Source of the DNA: Escherichia phage vojen
Sequence record: NC_049824.1
Direction: 5' to 3' (one strand)
Length of the DNA: 50,709 nt
Shown here: positions 29,513-39,430 of the stretch, one piece after another
Numbering within the stretch: position 1 is the first letter of the stretch
Layout: every line of letters begins with the position of its first letter
Program-made: the position numbers and the translations under genes
The notes under the pieces: model-generated
The model's database searches: none
Told to the model about the DNA's origin: nothing
The model's input: only the letters and a program-made list of their open reading frames with translations

Positions 29513-29818
29513 ATGGCTGAATATGGTGTTTCAACGTGGGATGCTAACGGAAAATATAATAACTACGGGATTAAGCCAGTTTCCGTTGTTGGTGTCATCA
29601 GTCTTGCCGCTGGTCAGACAAGCGGATCGTGGAGCTTTAGCATTCCAAGTGGTTTTAAGGTTGGGTATGTTGTTTCACTTGATGAAGGCGCTAGAGGAGT
29701 TGGAAGGGAAATAGTGGCATCTGGAAATACAATAAGAATTAGTCCTACATCGTCAGTTGGTCCAAATAGGTATTCTTCTTCAAAGTGCGAGTTAGTTGTT
29801 TTTCTTGAGAGGGCTTAA
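29513..29818 (+). CDS. putative tail-fibre-associated protein (101 aa)
   Basis: GGAGG RBS; starts MAEYG like the next gene; AT-rich. Confidence 0.45.
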   Translation: MAEYGVSTWDANGKYNNYGIKPVSVVGVISLAAGQTSGSWSFSIPSGFKVGYVVSLDEGARGVGREIVASGNTIRISPTSSVGPNRYSSSKCELVVFLERA

Positions 29819-29819
29819 A

Positions 29820-30461
29820 ATGGCTGAATATGGAGCAATGTTATCTTTATCAAATGGGAATCCATTTATCACACCAAAATCAACGCCATTTTGCTTATAT
29901 GGCAAGTACACTTATTCATCTTCTGGCAATTCTGCCTATCATAGCGCAAGCGCAAATATACCATTAAATCAATCTTATCCATGTATGGCATTTATAAAAA
30001 CAACAAACACACAGCAGCCAACTGCATTAATAGCTTACAGGAATGGTGGCAACATTTATGTAAACGGAGGCAATCCATACGGGCAATCATTTACAATGAC
30101 TGTTTATATATTTGCCATATTCCCTCAAACTCTGCCAAAATATGGCATGGCTATATGGGATGCAAGCGGCAAGTTGGTTTTAACTAATGAAAGCAGGGTG
30201 CTAACAGACCTTGTGACAATTGGTGCTCATGGTTCTTCAGGGGGAACTAATATAGATCAGACATTATCTGGTTCTTATGCCGTTTGCCCATCAAGGCTTG
30301 GTGCTGTTATAGGTATGGGTGCGTCTGACATATATACATCATGCAGGTATGATGGTTCAAGCACAAGGATAGGTGCGGCAAGGACAACTCCAGGAACAGG
30401 TTCTATAACAAATAACGGAAACTCAATAATTGCCATCAAGACTGATATTTACGACCAATAA
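29820..30461 (+). CDS. putative tail-fibre-associated / receptor-recognition accessory protein (213 aa)
   Basis: Starts MAEYG; internal YGMAIWDASGKL resembles the N-terminus of the upstream gene; Gly/Ser/Thr-rich; AT-rich. Confidence 0.45.
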   Translation: MAEYGAMLSLSNGNPFITPKSTPFCLYGKYTYSSSGNSAYHSASANIPLNQSYPCMAFIKTTNTQQPTALIAYRNGGNIYVNGGNPYGQSFTMTVYIFAIFPQTLPKYGMAIWDASGKLVLTNESRVLTDLVTIGAHGSSGGTNIDQTLSGSYAVCPSRLGAVIGMGASDIYTSCRYDGSSTRIGAARTTPGTGSITNNGNSIIAIKTDIYDQ

Positions 30462-30465
30462 AAAG

Positions 30466-30492
30466 GGGCTTTCGCCCCTTTATTTTTATTTA
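30466..30492. terminator. Bidirectional intrinsic terminator
   Basis: GGGGC-TTTC-GCCCC hairpin flanked by A-run upstream and T-run downstream, between convergent genes. Confidence 0.8.
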
Positions 30493-30717
30493 CAGACTGC
30501 AATCAGCGTTTTTAAAGTTGTCAATGTTTACCCACTGAAAATTAAACGGATAGCCAGCCTTAACAAGAGTGCGGTCGCCAACTCGTTTTACTCCGAAAAT
30601 AGCAACTGAATACTGCATTCCGCTATTTTCATAAATAGCCGTGCATTCACGTTTAGGCATATTTGCGCACCCAGTCAGGGTTACGGTGGCAATCAAAGCG
30701 GCGATAAATTTTTTCAT
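30490..30717 (-). CDS. small outer-membrane lipoprotein, candidate superinfection-exclusion protein (Cor/Llp-like)
   Basis: Signal peptide with lipobox LTGC; mature ~58 aa with two Cys; GGAGA RBS; sits beside the host-range genes on the opposite strand. Confidence 0.5.
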   Translation of the reverse strand: MKKFIAALIATVTLTGCANMPKRECTAIYENSGMQYSVAIFGVKRVGDRTLVKAGYPFNFQWVNIDNFKNADCSL

Positions 30718-33842: not shown

Positions 33843-33866
33843 CAAGGGGGCATTACGCCCCTTTTT
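33843..33866 (+). terminator. Putative terminator after ssb
   Basis: GGGGG...CCCC hairpin followed by TTTTT. Confidence 0.5.
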
Positions 33867-34110
33867 CACTTTCAGCCATCCCAAGAACGGCAATAACCTT
33901 AACAGCAATTCGCTTTGCAAGTTCGGTTTGATGAGCGTTAAGTTTTCCAGTGGTCATTATTGACAACATTCCGGTCATACTTCCAAGCCCGTTAAAATCT
34001 GACATTGCCGATTTCATGATTGATATTGGTGAGTGACCTTCATCAGCTATTGTATGCGCTCTCTCTGACAGGTCTTTAACTACCTGATCTATTCCTTCAC
34101 TTTTCGTCAT
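33853..34110 (-). CDS. hypothetical protein (85 aa)
   Basis: ORF on minus strand; last gene of the minus-strand tail-fibre block. Confidence 0.45.
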   Translation of the reverse strand: MTKSEGIDQVVKDLSERAHTIADEGHSPISIMKSAMSDFNGLGSMTGMLSIMTTGKLNAHQTELAKRIAVKVIAVLGMAESEKGA

Positions 34111-34588
34111 TTTCTTTTCCTTCAGGAGTTGATTGCTGTTCTGGCATTACAGGCCACGGGCTAATTGATTCCCTTTCTGCTACTGGTTTTTCAGGTTCAA
34201 TACCTAAAAACTTTCCTACAAACTCACCAACAAAATTTGAACTATCGCTTACATAAACATGCATTCTGTCAAGATCTGCAACTGTAACGCTGTTTGGTGC
34301 GATCATAATTCGCTGTTGGTGAAAACCGATATACATCACATTTGCCGGACGCTCAATAGTTCCCATATTTGGCGCAATTACACCCATTATCCAACAATAA
34401 TGAATATTGCCATCAAGCGGCTCACATCCGGCGTTAAGCCAGTTTACTTTCTGGTGTGGGAATGCCATTGATGAATCAGTAGCATCACGCCGCAACGACC
34501 ATTTAACGCCGCCAATCTCAATGATTTGTTTCGGCCTCATTCCGTTGAATTGAGTCACGCCAGCGCCATTTTGATTAATGTTTTGCAT
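34097..34588 (-). CDS. hypothetical protein (163 aa)
   Basis: ORF on minus strand downstream of the tail-fibre genes. Confidence 0.5.
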   Translation of the reverse strand: MQNINQNGAGVTQFNGMRPKQIIEIGGVKWSLRRDATDSSMAFPHQKVNWLNAGCEPLDGNIHYCWIMGVIAPNMGTIERPANVMYIGFHQQRIMIAPNSVTVADLDRMHVYVSDSSNFVGEFVGKFLGIEPEKPVAERESISPWPVMPEQQSTPEGKENDEK

Positions 34589-34602: not shown

Positions 34603-34926
34603 TTACATTGATTTCATTTTACGCAATGCGCAGATACAAGCGGCAGCAAGATCGGTTAATTCTTTCTCAATGCCATGATGCGAGCCATCTACCTTTTCTG
34701 TCATTAGCTCTTTGTATTCCATTTCTACAATCGACATTAAGCCGCCTGGCTTGTCAATGTGCGCGTCCCAGGTTTTAGGATAGTGCTTAGTTCTTTCCAT
34801 AACACTTCCCATAACTGAATCATGTTTGCTATCTCGCTCATAATCATCATCATGATCATCACTCCCGATTGAAACTCGCGGCAAATGAATGCGCGGTATT
34901 TTATAGCCAGCATAACGGATCTTCAT
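34603..34926 (-). CDS. hypothetical protein (107 aa)
   Basis: ORF on minus strand. Confidence 0.45.
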   Translation of the reverse strand: MKIRYAGYKIPRIHLPRVSIGSDDHDDDYERDSKHDSVMGSVMERTKHYPKTWDAHIDKPGGLMSIVEMEYKELMTEKVDGSHHGIEKELTDLAAACICALRKMKSM

Positions 34927-34975
34927 TATCTCGCCCTCTTGATGAAAAGCGCCCCGAAAGGCGCTTGATTTATTA

Positions 34976-35677
34976 TTAGCCGCAGCAGCCAGTAGGCGGA
35001 GTCTGCGGAGTAGGCAACTTGAAGTTTACCAATTGCTCTACCTGGTTGATTTTGCAATTCAGTGCGGCGGTCTGGTTTGCCTGAGATAGAGCAAAACGCG
35101 CTTCCTGCAATTGAGCTTTCATATCGCAAATCAAAACAGCCTGAGAATCAGCGAACTGTTGACGAATCAGATCTCGCGTTGCGTTACCTTGTCGCTCAAT
35201 GTTCAAGTTAGTCTCGCAGCAGCATCTCTCCGCTGCAATCTGTGCCTGATAGGAACGCTCAAGAGCATTAACATCAGCAGCATTAATCGCAGCAACTGTC
35301 TGGTTAGTACCGTTAACAATCGCGGTATTCAGTCCGGCGAAACCTTGCACCGATGCAAGCAGGTTTTGCGTATTCTGGCTGGTAATGCCGTTAAATGTTG
35401 ATGCGGCGGAGCGCTCAACGGCAAGGTTTGTGGAGTTTTGGCCTTGCAGAGTTTGCAGTCCCAGGTTGTTTACGCCTGTCTGGATGTTATTAATACCATC
35501 AAGAACAGCGTTAGCACCGACAGCAACAGCCGCACCATCACCACCATAACCACCACGACCATTAAAGCCGTTACCAAACCATGACCCAATCAGGCCGCCA
35601 ACAGCACCACCAAGACCAGCCGCGCCAGCTTCGCCACCAAAACCACCACCAGTAGGGAGTAAAGTCATATCTGACAT
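34976..35677 (-). CDS. glycine-rich protein with cysteine clusters (233 aa)
   Basis: N-terminal ~50 aa Gly-rich; Asn/Gln/Thr-rich middle; CCCETN and terminal TGCCG; GAGGA RBS. Confidence 0.55.
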   Translation of the reverse strand: MSDMTLLPTGGGFGGEAGAAGLGGAVGGLIGSWFGNGFNGRGGYGGDGAAVAVGANAVLDGINNIQTGVNNLGLQTLQGQNSTNLAVERSAASTFNGITSQNTQNLLASVQGFAGLNTAIVNGTNQTVAAINAADVNALERSYQAQIAAERCCCETNLNIERQGNATRDLIRQQFADSQAVLICDMKAQLQEARFALSQANQTAALNCKINQVEQLVNFKLPTPQTPPTGCCG

Positions 35678-35811
35678 AGTAAATTCCTCTTTGACGTTAA
35701 AAAAACAAAAAAAGTTTGCAACATTTATGTTACGACAAAGAGTATGCGCCTAACTGTCAGGAATAGATATAAAACATTTGTCAACGATATGTAAGCAACT
35801 GGCATAAAGAC

Positions 35812-35838
35812 GAAAAAAAGCGCAGCCGGAGCCGCGCT
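35812..35838 (-). terminator. Rho-independent terminator after the tail-fibre gene
   Basis: Minus-strand AGCGC-loop-GCGCT hairpin followed by TTTTTTT. Confidence 0.7.
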
Positions 35839-35854
35839 TGAGTTAAAAAGATTG

Positions 35855-37870
35855 TTATTTATTGAGCAGTGCAGCAACAGCCGCCTTTAATTCGTCTATC
35901 TCCTTTTGCTGTTTTTCGATCATTCCTCCCATGTAAACCATAGCGCAAGCCATATCAGTTAGCATAACGTTGCTATCAAGCGCTAAGGTATCATCCTTTC
36001 TGTCAGTTTCAATCTGGCGATCAATGTATTCCTCGCCATTTTCATCAACCCCGATCACATCTTCAAATACTGGCGAGCCTGGGACAAGTTTCACGTATTG
36101 CGGATCGATTTTTAACAGGTCTTGAGCTATCAGGCCAAAACGCTGGATATCAGATCCATTGTATTTAAACATGGTTGGCAACCATTGCATCACGCGATCA
36201 TAGCTTTCCTTTCCGTCCGTGTACTGAATATCGTGCTTTAAATCACGATCAGATGTTGGGTTTTTTGCAAAGTCATAGTTTCCACCCCACGGATCATTAC
36301 CCCAAGAATAAATGTCACCAGACTTACCAAAATTATATGCGCGATGATAACGACCATCACCTAACATGTGAATAGCAACCTGAGGCCAATCGGTAGTGCC
36401 GTCTGAAATAATACCTAAAGACGTTCTCATATAGTAACCACCGTCAGACTGAGAGCCACCTGACACTATCGGGGACCAGCCGCTGTTATTTTTATTAACG
36501 GTGTCAGCCCAAAACGGAGTTAACCTGTTATCTGCATCGGCGTCCCAGCCACCCATATAGCAACGACCCATAAAACCACGCGGCGATCTTATATACCCGC
36601 TAGCCTGAGTGTCATTCGGCTCAGGTATGAAGTTAAAAACGACACCGGAGTATCCTGGTTTATTTGGACTAATGTATAGCTGGGCATTATTTAGATCCGT
36701 TCCTTCGCCCCTGACTGCTCCGAACTGCCAGTATCCATCGTACCAATTCCCTTGCAATAGGTTTACCCACCCACCTGGAGAGGAGTCGCCACCGATGTTC
36801 GTCAGATATATGCGTTTATCACCACCAACATCAGTTTTACAGCCGACAATGTGAGTTTGCGGCACTAGAATATCGCCGTCTGTAGCCGTAATGCTCTTAA
36901 ATTGAACGTCTTGCGCATTTCCAAGCCCAAGATTATTACGAGCACCTGCGGCATCAGTTGCCCCAGTCCCACCAGTCGCAATTTCAAATGGCTTGGTGTC
37001 AGATCCGTCACCTTTCTGATAAACTAGTAATCCGTCATCTCTGATAACCAGCCTATAAGATCCTGTTGGCGAGTAAATAAGCGTATGTGCACCAAGGGTA
37101 TCAAAAGGACCGATTCGCATGTTTTGACGAGCAATTTCTATGTTAGATAGATCTGAAAGGTTCGCATCTTTTCTAAGAAGATTTTCAGCATCAAGGCTTT
37201 TAGCAAATTCTTCGGCCTCATTGCGCGCCATAACAGCGCCGTTTTTTGCAGTTTCAGCGGCGTTATTTGCAGATTGAGCGCCAGTCATGTATTGCTGGGC
37301 TGAATCCCTTGCTGAAATAGCTTCGTTTTTCAGATTAGAAACATCACCCTTTATCTGATTCATTTCTGAAACAGCCTGATCTTTAGTTTGGTTTACAGCT
37401 AAAACACCTTGATCGCGTGCGGAATTAACTTCCGTTATCGCAGAATCTTTAATCTGTTGCGTTTGCGCCTTGATTGCGTTAGTGTCTGCTTTAACCTGAT
37501 TAGCCAGATCTTGCAACTGTTTTAGGTCAAAGTTTTTGAAAAATTCAATAGCTTCCTCGATCTGAGTTTCTTTGCTTTGATAGTAACGCAGCGTTTCCGC
37601 TACATCTTGCGCCAGGCCATCAACAGTGATTGAGTCATGCAGCAAAATAATGTAGTTGCTTCGCCCAATTTCAGCGCCGCCAGTTGTGATGGCGCGGATT
37701 TGTGTATCGCTGATAACTTCACTGATCACAGCCGCTTGAAATGGTGCATCAATGAAAAAGATTGTTGCACCAGGGCGAATGAGCGCTAGTTGCTCTCGCC
37801 ATTTCGTGTCGTATCCAGTGATATAACCCTGAGCGTCCATTGACGCTTGTCCGGTTCTGTAAATTGCCAT
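35855..37870 (-). CDS. tail fibre protein with C-terminal intramolecular chaperone (peptidase S74-like) domain
   Basis: Start moved to ATG with GGGAGA RBS; coiled-coil-like middle; C-terminal [11 protein letters not shown] segment resembling auto-cleaving chaperone domains. Confidence 0.7.
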
Positions 37871-37928
37871 GCGCTTTCTCCCATGTTGCATGTTAATGTC
37901 AATGAAGATAATAGCATTCGTTAAGGCC

Positions 37929-37951
37929 AAAAAAAACCCCGCAATGCGGGG
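37929..37951 (-). terminator. Rho-independent terminator after the primase gene
   Basis: Minus-strand CCCCGC-ATT-GCGGGG hairpin followed by TTTTTTTT. Confidence 0.8.
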
Positions 37952-38956: not shown

Positions 38957-39430
38957 TTAGCAATTAGTGCTTTCAGGTTTATACAGGAATCCGCCAGGTT
39001 CATAATCTGACATTCTTACCACTCGCAACATTTCACGCTTATCACATCTCTTTGTGAGCGGTTTTCCATTGGAATCAAATCGCAGATCTGGACGGCAGAA
39101 TGAAGCGCGATAGCCTTGACAGCCATACTTTTTGTAATCGTTATGCACCTTTTGAGCGCCAGCGGCTGAAATCATACCGCGAACGCGCCACTGATTTACA
39201 GTTTGCTGGCTAACGTTAAGACGCTTTGCCATTGCTGACACGCTGCCGTAATACTCAATAAGAATGTCAAGCCGTGCTTTTAGTCCGGCGCGCACTTCAT
39301 CTTTTAAAACATAGTATCCTGTAGGGCGCTTGCGCTTTTTCTTATCTTTACCCCGTCGAGTTCCGTTATTGCCATTGATTGTGCGTTTGTCAATCTTACC
39401 AGTTGATACTGCGATTCGCTGTTCTTTCAT
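38957..39430 (-). CDS. putative DNA-binding regulator (basic N-terminus, HTH-like segment)
   Basis: KDKKKRKRP basic stretch; LNVSQQTVNQWR HTH-like segment; GGAGA RBS; start abuts a conserved element in the divergent region. Confidence 0.5.
   Translation of the reverse strand: MKEQRIAVSTGKIDKRTINGNNGTRRGKDKKKRKRPTGYYVLKDEVRAGLKARLDILIEYYGSVSAMAKRLNVSQQTVNQWRVRGMISAAGAQKVHNDYKKYGCQGYRASFCRPDLRFDSNGKPLTKRCDKREMLRVVRMSDYEPGGFLYKPESTNC

Follow-up and report, generated by a model that had tools for sequence, protein, structure and literature searches.

Escherichia phage vojen (NC_049824.1) encodes a glycine-rich protein with clustered cysteines beside its tail fiber gene. Does this protein belong to the fiber, or to the virion at all, or does it act elsewhere during infection? 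The window analyzed here is the whole stretch of 50,709 nucleotides from this phage. It is the genome of a T1-like siphovirus in the genus Hanrivervirus, which belongs to the subfamily Tempevirinae of the Drexlerviridae. We refer to the gene and to its product as X. A sequence-only reading of the window had left X as a distal fiber or penetration component or a secreted factor, and had compared its N terminus with the translocation domains of colicins and with some fiber or needle proteins.

Our best reading is that X leads a small mobile accessory cassette. The cassette also contains a gene for a MazG-like protein (p1) and usually two further small genes (p2 and p3). The link of X to the tail fiber is positional only, and its link to the cassette is nearly universal. 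Our leading but tentative view of the protein is that it forms a membrane-associated oligomeric rod in the infected cell, outside the virion. We infer that X is absent from virions and has a cellular role.

X is a real gene under strong purifying selection. Its ATG start codon lies at 35677-35675 and its stop codon at 34978-34976 on the minus strand, and it spans exactly the coordinates given in the sequence-only reading. The ratio of nonsynonymous to synonymous substitution rates (dN/dS) was about 0.10 to 0.11 for the whole open reading frame (ORF) when X was compared with its relatives in five other phages, wherever synonymous sites were unsaturated. The same comparison gave 0.10 to 0.27 for the Gly-rich N terminus. 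The 1.2 kb around X is 96 to 98% identical to the DNA of phages egaa, SFP17, slyngel, and pSf-1.

The protein belongs to PHROG 9288, labeled "function unknown" (E = 5.9e-124). Searches retrieved 230 homologues from 5.8 billion proteins, and a profile search retrieved 568. Among 1.8 billion cluster representatives, all of which were scanned, 91 clusters matched. The source names shown for these homologues were only "hypothetical" and never structural, and no Pfam domain was present on any of them. Among 185,579 species-representative bacterial genomes, relatives of X were found only on two short contigs of metagenome-assembled genomes. As far as these data go, only phages, and mainly virulent ones, carry members of the family in their genomes. 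PHROG 9288 is an already catalogued but uncharacterized family.

Other database searches returned little. X matched no Pfam family at E ≤ 1, and nothing above threshold in NCBIfam or PADLOC. Scans of its distant homologues and of the three partner proteins against the same three collections also gave nothing above threshold. X and its three partner proteins had no match to PADLOC defense models at E ≤ 1. The family profile gave only noise against PDB sequences, with the glycine zipper of SlyB at E = 1.8. The AlphaFold model of X had no Foldseek match in the PDB. Pfam DUF6627 was considered as the family of X and rejected, as it was matched by a single distant member below threshold. One distant homologue, used as a query against the viral collection, gave no match. 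A literature search on glycine-rich and glycine-zipper phage proteins found nothing relevant.

The X cassette and its distribution

The cassette was counted by scoring iterated profiles on every ORF of all fetched loci. Undisrupted X was present at 27 of these loci, which represent about 15 non-redundant lineages and reach down to about 30% identity. p1 was found downstream of X, on the same strand and within about 0.5 kb, at 26 of the 27. p2 was present at 15, and p3 was present in the enterobacterial-phage versions of the cassette.

p1 contains a variable N terminus rich in His, Asp, and Arg and a conserved two-helix core with an ExxE...ExxD pattern, which on paired helices is the metal-binding pattern of MazG-like all-alpha NTP pyrophosphohydrolases. 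It contains a C-terminal CxC. The EYKE and ELTD motifs are conserved, and E73 and E89 are each at least 90% conserved. The conserved core is only about 60 residues long. The p1 profile matched PDB 2p06 weakly, and p1 had no Pfam match at E ≤ 0.01. On the motifs and this weak match, the label "MazG-like" is reasonable but unproven. A His-rich p1 with its CxC, taken together with the Cys cluster of X, hints at metal binding.

The AlphaFold model of p2 was fair (predicted local distance difference test [pLDDT] score of 74) and had no significant structural neighbor. p1, p2, and p3 showed no obvious hydrophobic segment when read by eye, with no signal-peptide or transmembrane predictor applied. 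This fits a cytoplasmic site of action. The p1 of phage Sasha (gp08; L018 5751-6119) contains HHHHHYHHGHH in its N terminus, within DDDDDEEEDVEIHHHHHYHHGHH.

The sequence-only reading was right to place X beside a tail fiber gene in the window. X also follows the lateral tail fiber gene in Tlsvirus, Seuratvirus, Nonagvirus, Eiauvirus, and several metagenomic siphovirus and myovirus contigs. It lies between terL and the portal gene in Sashavirus and in Nonanavirus PJ16. In PY100, a myovirus, it is placed in a region of small genes, away from the tail fiber genes of that phage (ORF78 and its neighbors). Tunavirus Sfin-1 and Warwickvirus vB_EcoS-95, two phages from the family to which vojen also belongs, lack the whole block, and their fiber gene directly adjoins the recombination genes.

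X is 96 to 98% identical at the nucleotide level beside different fiber alleles. Phage KarlJaspers has a different fiber locus with a separate chaperone gene, yet its X and flanks are 96% nucleotide-identical. The gene neither sits in the virion module nor is inherited along with it. Its adjacency to the fiber gene in the window is no evidence of fiber function.

The cassette appears to be dispensable and accessory, because it is disrupted or fragmentary in persistent lineages. A frameshifted X was found in a Queuovirinae lineage with metagenomic genomes of about 61 kb. It was present in 21 contigs, 11 of them longer than 50 kb, so this lineage persists with a broken cassette. The Queuovirinae copy is an X::p2 chimera (P0123; L028 5739-6672 and L029 3553-4486), and its frameshift lies in the Gly-rich region of X. 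At the junction, CCCETNLNIER of X runs into PVNVMYVGFH, with a shared IER(P) microhomology, and continues as the C-terminal half of p2. Lost in the deletion are the final third of X, the entire p1 gene, and the beginning of p2.

The T5-like phages of the genus Epseptimavirus contain X only as fragments, located directly downstream of the lateral tail fiber gene. Many T5-like phages of Salmonella and E. coli have such fragments, which mostly cover the core around a Cys triplet (CCC) and are 71 to 77% identical at the DNA level. Examples are SuperGirl (L004 5001-5177) and vaffelhjerte (L005 4749-5339). They are often unannotated or named "tail fiber protein." They look like scars of fiber-module exchange with T1-like or Seurat-like phages.

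The Seuratvirus KurtStettler encodes X as an in-frame fusion to an S74 fiber (bas22_0024; L003 3981-5513; 510 amino acids). Residues 1 to about 295 are a fiber fragment with the Peptidase_S74 domain, ending in GLLVQVCRE. X follows from its residue 16 or 17 (AGAAGIGGAIGG), so the first 15 or 16 residues of X have been replaced. Other Seuratviruses keep X as a separate gene. The "chaperone" label, since copied to records such as PJ16, probably originated with this fusion. A second label, "putative sugar-binding protein" (MZ501090 bas06_0034 and MZ501059 bas08_0030), was rejected, as it has no basis in the BASEL paper or in any of our searches. The present analysis corrects both "putative sugar-binding protein" and "lateral tail fiber chaperone," annotations that are spreading.

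Nineteen unannotated "Campylobacter phage" records (MG065636-MG065679; host Campylobacter jejuni) are 93 to 96% identical to this Hanrivervirus region of coliphage type. A mistaken host label, or contamination, probably explains this.

Architecture of X

The sequence-only reading had divided X into a Gly/Ala/Phe N terminus, an Asn/Gln/Thr-rich middle, and two Cys clusters. The composition was as described. The first 55 residues contain 21 Gly, 8 Ala, and 3 Phe, and residues 56-150 contain 15 Asn, 15 Ala, 10 Gln, and 9 Thr. Both Cys clusters are present, at residues 152-154 (CCCETN, 152-157) and 231-232 (TGCCG). Two further Cys residues, C184 and C208, had been missed.

The AlphaFold monomer model of X had a low pLDDT of 58. 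It contains helices at residues 49-76 and 83-218 of low to moderate confidence, as is common when an oligomeric coiled coil is modeled as a monomer. Residues 1-48 had a pLDDT below 50 and no secondary structure and are predicted to be disordered.

X begins with a short acidic peptide. M1, D3, M4, L6, and P8 are invariant or nearly so among close homologues, and an M-(S/D/E)-x-M-x-L-(L/I)-P motif is retained in distant relatives. The peptide is followed by a glycine zipper. Close homologues show no variation at G27, and across the family both G27 and G31 are at least 90% conserved. Several overlapping (G/A/S)xxx(G/A/S) registers are present in the zipper of every member inspected. X has the repeated GxxxG register in a helix by which glycine-zipper membrane proteins are recognized. 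One conserved Arg lies directly past the zipper.

Known glycine-zipper membrane proteins (PF13488 and PF05433) resemble X in having (GxxxG)3 in a Gly/Ala-rich, weakly hydrophobic N-terminal helix. They differ in having neither a hendecad rod of about 170 residues nor a Cys cluster, and the X family falls entirely below the Pfam threshold. Gly-zipper_Omp and Rick_17kDa_Anti gave sub-threshold matches in 3 of 42 members and none for X itself.

The zipper of X has an apparent insertion energy of +5.2 kcal/mol on the Hessa scale. Most members scored +3.5 to +7, and five distant homologues scored +1.1 to +2.6 kcal/mol. Some distant homologues contain plainly hydrophobic N-terminal segments, such as WWIIILFLFAFC and LIGILLIAALF. 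The zipper, together with these hydrophobic versions, points tentatively to inner-membrane association. Among 53 members, the flank N-terminal to the zipper has a mean net charge of -1.3 with 0.32 Lys/Arg, and the C-terminal flank has about one Lys/Arg. If the zipper spans the membrane, these flanking charges would favor the N terminus outside and the C-terminal part inside.

The rod makes up most of the protein. In the family-mean spectrum, its hydrophobic period peaks at 3.66, with a power of 49.2 compared with 6.0 at 3.5. Spacings of 11, 22, 33, or 66 residues account for 58 of 59 cases of repeated motifs. The QGF(A/S)GLN signature recurs at intervals of 11, 22, or 33 residues, with one to three copies per protein; 22 is by far the most common interval and was seen 46 times. 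From this period and these spacings, the rod is a hendecad rather than a heptad coiled coil, and its length varies in steps of 22 residues. It has the period of 3.67 and the repeats in multiples of 11 that define a hendecad coiled coil.

Known hendecad coiled coils, such as tetrabrachion and the Streptomyces proteins FilP and Scy, share with X the period of 3.66 and the units of 11 or 22 residues. They have no sequence relationship to X. X is much shorter, has few charges, and contains a zipper head and a core CCC.

The Cys residues of the rod are strongly conserved. In 120 close homologues, C152 and C153 are each 99% conserved, C154 is 100% conserved, and C184 is 98% conserved. Across relatives at 22 to 67% identity, C154 is the sole invariant column, and C152, C153, R168, and several Gly residues of the zipper are at least 90% conserved. 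The triplet heads a core motif, CCC-x-T-x3-I-x2-x-G-x-x-T-R-x-L. Hendecad column 5 is the most hydrophobic. The triplet occupies columns 4 to 6, and C153 and C208 are both in column 5. C153 and C208 should therefore face the core of the bundle.

The C-terminal tail is more variable. Close homologues retain FKLPTPxTPPT, and about 72% of them have the terminal CC. Distant homologues mostly have Thr/Ala-rich tails without Cys, and a minority end in Cys or in Cys-rich tails. The terminal CC is not family-defining, because only about 72% of close and some distant homologues have it.

P0204, a distant metagenomic homologue of 296 amino acids, contains four CCC triplets. Two of its modules, headed by CCC at 146 and 179, are near-identical and read CCC-x-TNLNIERQGF, a variant, CCCELQ, is at 48, and CCCC forms the C-terminal end. 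From its sequence, the CCC-TNLNIER unit may be a repeatable functional module.

Control elements flanking X

X is flanked by terminators on both sides, a strong one that ends the fiber transcript upstream and a partial one past the X stop codon (Table 1). The terminator of the fiber transcript is annotated at the counterpart position in phage G29-2. A hairpin comparable to the one past the X stop codon was found in 12 of 13 genomes compared, the exception being locus L024.

The DNA upstream of X was aligned across nine phages from six genera. An xATxCT hexamer is invariant in all nine and lies 7 to 8 nt upstream of a palindrome. It retains A and T at positions 2 and 6, respectively, which are the most critical positions of a sigma-70 -10 hexamer. 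It may be the -10 element of a promoter of X's own. Sequences directly upstream of it did not recur above chance in the window.

The palindrome takes the form GTAAC-N3-6-GTT(A/G)C across the six genera, with GTAAC and GTT.C invariant. It is the sole match in the 50.7-kb window. Transcription is predicted to begin at GTAAC (35733) or slightly upstream of it. A phage regulator is encoded at 38957-39430. All positions of the stem pair in the alignment, with no covariation. Its conservation in sequence, without covariation, is more in keeping with a protein-binding operator or a defined 5'-terminal hairpin than with an RNA fold of a general kind. The lack of covariation leaves unsupported the view that the GTAAC/GTTAC stem is purely an RNA structure.

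The leader of X had no match in Rfam. In the window (35678-35747) and in eiAU-183 (L027 4756-4826), the predicted leader fold pairs the Shine-Dalgarno region with an upstream CUCUUUG. In Sasha (L018 4930-5000), the ribosome-binding site is paired with CUCCUGU. The folds in these three phages have z scores of -2.4 to -3.5. The pairing is absent in Seuratvirus and Nonagvirus. The predicted pairing suggests, as a lead only, translational masking on read-through transcripts.

In these respects the cassette resembles a moron (lambda bor and lom, HK97 gp15, T1 and phi80 cor). Like a moron, it is an optional and apparently dispensable unit with a terminator hairpin and a putative promoter, located at module boundaries and distributed patchily. 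It differs in residing in virulent phages rather than prophages, in having several genes and a specific palindrome, and in having no homology to characterized moron products.

Table 1. Features of X and its surroundings in the window
Feature	Coordinates	Strand	Basis
X, 233 amino acids, 23.8 kDa, pI 4.7	34976..35677	-	ORF and translation; PHROG 9288
Acidic N-terminal peptide, residues 1-16 (MSDMTLLPTGGGFGGE)	35630..35677	-	Conserved positions
Glycine zipper G23xxxG27xxxG31xxxG35, weakly hydrophobic helix, residues 17-37	35567..35629	-	Conserved Gly register
Gly/aromatic/Arg linker FNGRGGYGGDG, residues 38-48	35534..35566	-	AlphaFold
Helical rod of hendecad (11-residue) repeats, residues 49-218	35024..35533	-	AlphaFold and periodicity
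QGFAGLN repeat signature, residues 111-117	35327..35347	-	Nearly invariant
CCC triplet (TGC TGC TGC), residues 152-154	35216..35224	-	Sequence and conservation
Pro/Thr-rich tail ending GCCG, residues 219-233	34979..35023	-	Alignment
Shine-Dalgarno AGAGGA, 8 nt upstream of the X ATG	35685..35690	-	Sequence reading
GTAAC-N6-GTTGC inverted repeat at the predicted transcript start	35718..35733	-	Alignment
CATACT, -10-like hexamer, putative own promoter	35741..35746	-	Alignment
Intrinsic terminator of the tail fiber transcript, upstream of X	35818..35839	-	Nine-pair stem and T run
GC-rich hairpin and TTTT, 10 nt past the X stop, partial terminator before p1	34947..34966	-	Scan
Upstream fiber gene	35855-37930	-	Peptidase_S74 chaperone domain; annotated as lateral tail fiber in relatives
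p1, 107 amino acids, PHROG 9157, MazG-like	34603..34926	-	PHROG assignment, alignment
p2, 163 amino acids, PHROG 8329, beta-rich orphan fold	34097..34588	-	PHROG assignment
p3, 85 amino acids, PHROG 7239, small protein	33853..34110	-	PHROG assignment

Candidate roles of X

In the reading that we tentatively favor, infected cells would make X from a transcript of its own, and X would oligomerize through the glycine zipper and a hendecad bundle. The rod helix, of about 170 residues, would pack as a homo-oligomeric bundle with the conserved Cys residues lining its core. The zipper would associate X with the inner membrane. The flanking charges would favor an N terminus outside. The same charges, and the absence of any obvious hydrophobic segment in the partners, would favor a rod in the cytoplasm, where the conserved thiols would stay reduced. 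X and the soluble MazG-like p1 may then act as a moron-type module affecting host physiology or the envelope. X would be part of neither the tail fiber nor the virion.

Several observations weigh against this reading. The accessible virion proteomes (vB_EcoS-95 and Sf11) come from phages that have no X. Charged residues make up 11% of X, and Asn, Gln, Ser, and Thr make up 31%; this composition is atypical of cytoplasmic coiled coils and more like that of extracellular fibers or flagellin-type filaments. Many lineages have the cassette at the end of a tail or tail fiber module, and one in-frame fusion of X to an S74 fiber exists, in KurtStettler. Accessory fibers are often optional, so the dispensability of the cassette is compatible with an accessory virion fiber. 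In X and most close relatives, the zipper contains too much Gly to rate as a translocon-inserted helix, and its score of +3.5 to +7 kcal/mol makes membrane association uncertain. The MazG-like assignment of p1 comes from a motif and a single match at E = 0.0075. Because of the hairpin between X and p1, co-transcription of the two is not required. A scan for the sigma-70 consensus upstream of X found no promoter and no good -35 element. With a -10-like element, no -35, and a negative scan, the putative promoter would be activator dependent or otherwise atypical.

The alternative that survives best is that X is a virion protein, and we consider it somewhat unlikely. X would be an accessory trimeric coiled-coil fiber, a whisker, or a penetration component. 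The N-terminal peptide would attach it to the tail, and the zipper might enter the host membrane at infection. The low-charge, Asn/Gln/Thr-rich rod with its length varying in 22-residue steps is in keeping with this, as is the fusion in KurtStettler. X directly follows tail or tail fiber genes in Drexlerviridae, Queuovirinae, Eiauvirus, and several metagenomic lineages. Its strong Shine-Dalgarno sequence and the terminators on both sides are as for an abundant product. The Cys residues could stabilize an extracellular oligomer.

Set against these points, X travels with the MazG-like gene and two small proteins, not with fiber genes. Its location varies: in other genera it lies between terL and the portal gene or among small genes. 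Its sequence is independent of the fiber allele. Sister genera of the family lack it, and some lineages persist with broken copies. None of the source names shown for homologues is structural, and neither profiles nor structure prediction gave a tail PHROG, a Pfam family, or a Foldseek PDB match that would point to a fiber or needle. The fiber, needle, or penetration role raised by the sequence-only reading is weakened on all these counts, the near-constant companion of X being a MazG-like gene and not a fiber gene.

P22 gp26 and T4 fibritin are virion rods of similar length and are also polar, and gp26 also has 233 residues, which is a coincidence. X has no sequence or fold match to either. 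Its rod is hendecad rather than heptad, and its gene is MazG-linked and outside the conserved virion module.

The papers on phages eiAU and 9NA report no virion mass spectrometry. X contains 8 Arg and 3 Lys. Its first three tryptic peptides are 41 to 52 residues each, and peptides suited to mass spectrometry are CCCETNLNIER, QQFADSQAVLICDMK, FALSQANQTAALNCK, and INQVEQLVNFK.

We consider it distinctly unlikely that X is a soluble cytoplasmic scaffold or filament with no membrane role. Here the Gly/aromatic head would self-associate, the hendecad rod would be the body, and the Cys core would bind metal or sense redox together with the His-rich p1. The zipper is poor as a transmembrane helix in most members, and the head, rich in Gly, Phe, Trp, Tyr, and Arg, is predicted to be disordered. 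The hendecad rod is like those of the bacterial filament formers FilP and Scy. The invariant CCC, with one Cys in the core column, and the His-rich p1 with its CxC would also suit a metal or redox function. The hydrophobic N-terminal segments of several distant homologues are clear, however, and the conserved GxxxG register points to helix-helix packing of the membrane type. The very low charge of X would be unusual for a soluble cytoplasmic coiled coil.

A role of X as a membrane-active toxin, whether like a bacteriocin, a holin, or a microcin, is improbable. The zipper would form a pore and p1 would be the immunity protein or antidote, with effects on lysis timing, exclusion, or the killing of competitors once X is released. 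Strict pairing of X and p1 is like that of toxin-immunity pairs, and in three genera the leader fold is predicted to sequester the ribosome-binding site, as in tightly controlled toxic genes. The cassette adjoins lysis genes in two metagenomic contigs. Gly/Ala-rich zippers of this kind resemble the membrane-inserting segments of class II microcins and of signal-anchor-release (SAR) domains. No holin, bacteriocin, or colicin family was matched, however, and the lysis genes of the window are elsewhere, with the cassette not among them. p1 has catalytic-type acidic motifs rather than the features of a binding protein. A simple pore would leave the long conserved rod and the CCC unexplained, and the leader pairing is absent in Seuratvirus and Nonagvirus.

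The likeness to colicins is one of overall architecture only. Colicins E3 and Ia also have a Gly-rich N terminus followed by a long helical coiled coil. A colicin or cloacin translocation domain was not detected at E ≤ 1 in X or at E ≤ 0.1 in 42 members, and the PDB profile search returned no colicin chain at E ≤ 10. No other Pfam family was matched by X at E ≤ 1 either. The Gly-rich block is a (GxxxG)3 zipper under purifying selection and not a disordered Gly/Ser/Asn tract. X has no cytotoxic domain, as only 15 residues follow the rod, and its neighbors are a MazG-like gene and two orphan genes. No Tol box (DGSGW type) or Ton box was seen by eye, with no pattern search made. On present evidence, the gene is restricted to phages. 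The colicin comparison suggested by the sequence-only reading fails on every test of membership.

X also shares features with an i-spanin such as lambda Rz. Both have an anchor-like segment at the N terminus, a long stretch of helix with conserved Cys, and a Pro-rich C terminus. The rod of X would be about 20 nm long, comparable to the width of the periplasm. X lies outside the lysis cassette, however, it has no embedded or adjacent o-spanin gene, and it matches no PHROG or Pfam lysis family (Phage_lysis, Rz). The hydrophobicity of its N-terminal segment is weak (+5.2 kcal/mol), and the flanking charges favor a cytoplasmic rod. T1-type phages are known to use a single-component spanin.

A role as the assembly chaperone of the lateral tail fiber, as the KurtStettler and PJ16 annotations imply, is highly improbable: X is downstream of a fiber gene in several genera and two GenBank records are so annotated, but the KurtStettler label comes from a one-off fusion whose first ~295 residues are an S74 fiber fragment, X of PJ16 follows terL far from any fiber gene, the window fiber has its own intramolecular S74 chaperone domain, X is conserved whatever the fiber type, and no tail-fiber-assembly (Tfa), DUF4376, or S74 family was matched.

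To return to the membrane-associated cellular rod, its parts are of known kinds. The zipper, the hendecad rod, and the moron-like unit all have precedents, and their combination with a core CCC, a MazG-like partner, and a palindrome was not found described. It is possible, and we say so with reserve, that X and p1 are the core of an undescribed mobile accessory system with its own operator. Such a system would couple a membrane-anchored hendecad oligomer with a metal-binding or redox-sensing Cys core to a nucleotide pyrophosphatase. It would alter host physiology or counter defense in virulent siphoviruses and myoviruses of enterobacteria and gut bacteria.

X offers several handles. These are its near-obligate pairing with p1 down to about 30% identity, an invariant CCC in a rare coiled coil, the zipper head, and a putative private promoter or operator that accompanies the cassette in at least eight phage groups. 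If a host-takeover or antidefense module were proven, it would be a new protein architecture and would give a role to PHROG 9288, 9157, 8329, and 7239. Carriers of the cassette include KarlJaspers (Bas06), DanielBernoulli (Bas08), pSf-1, and egaa. Such phages are present in therapy and phage-host collections (BASEL), which makes the dispensable cassette a candidate engineering site.

Two further accessory genes of the window lie just past the central tail fiber gene. The first (29796-30461, plus strand) encodes a protein of PHROG 425, "membrane associated protein," of 213 to 221 amino acids, in the moron category. The second (30490-30717, minus strand) encodes 75 amino acids with a lipoprotein-type N terminus (MKKFIAALIATVTLTGC). 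It calls to mind the Cor lipoproteins that serve exclusion in T1-like phages.

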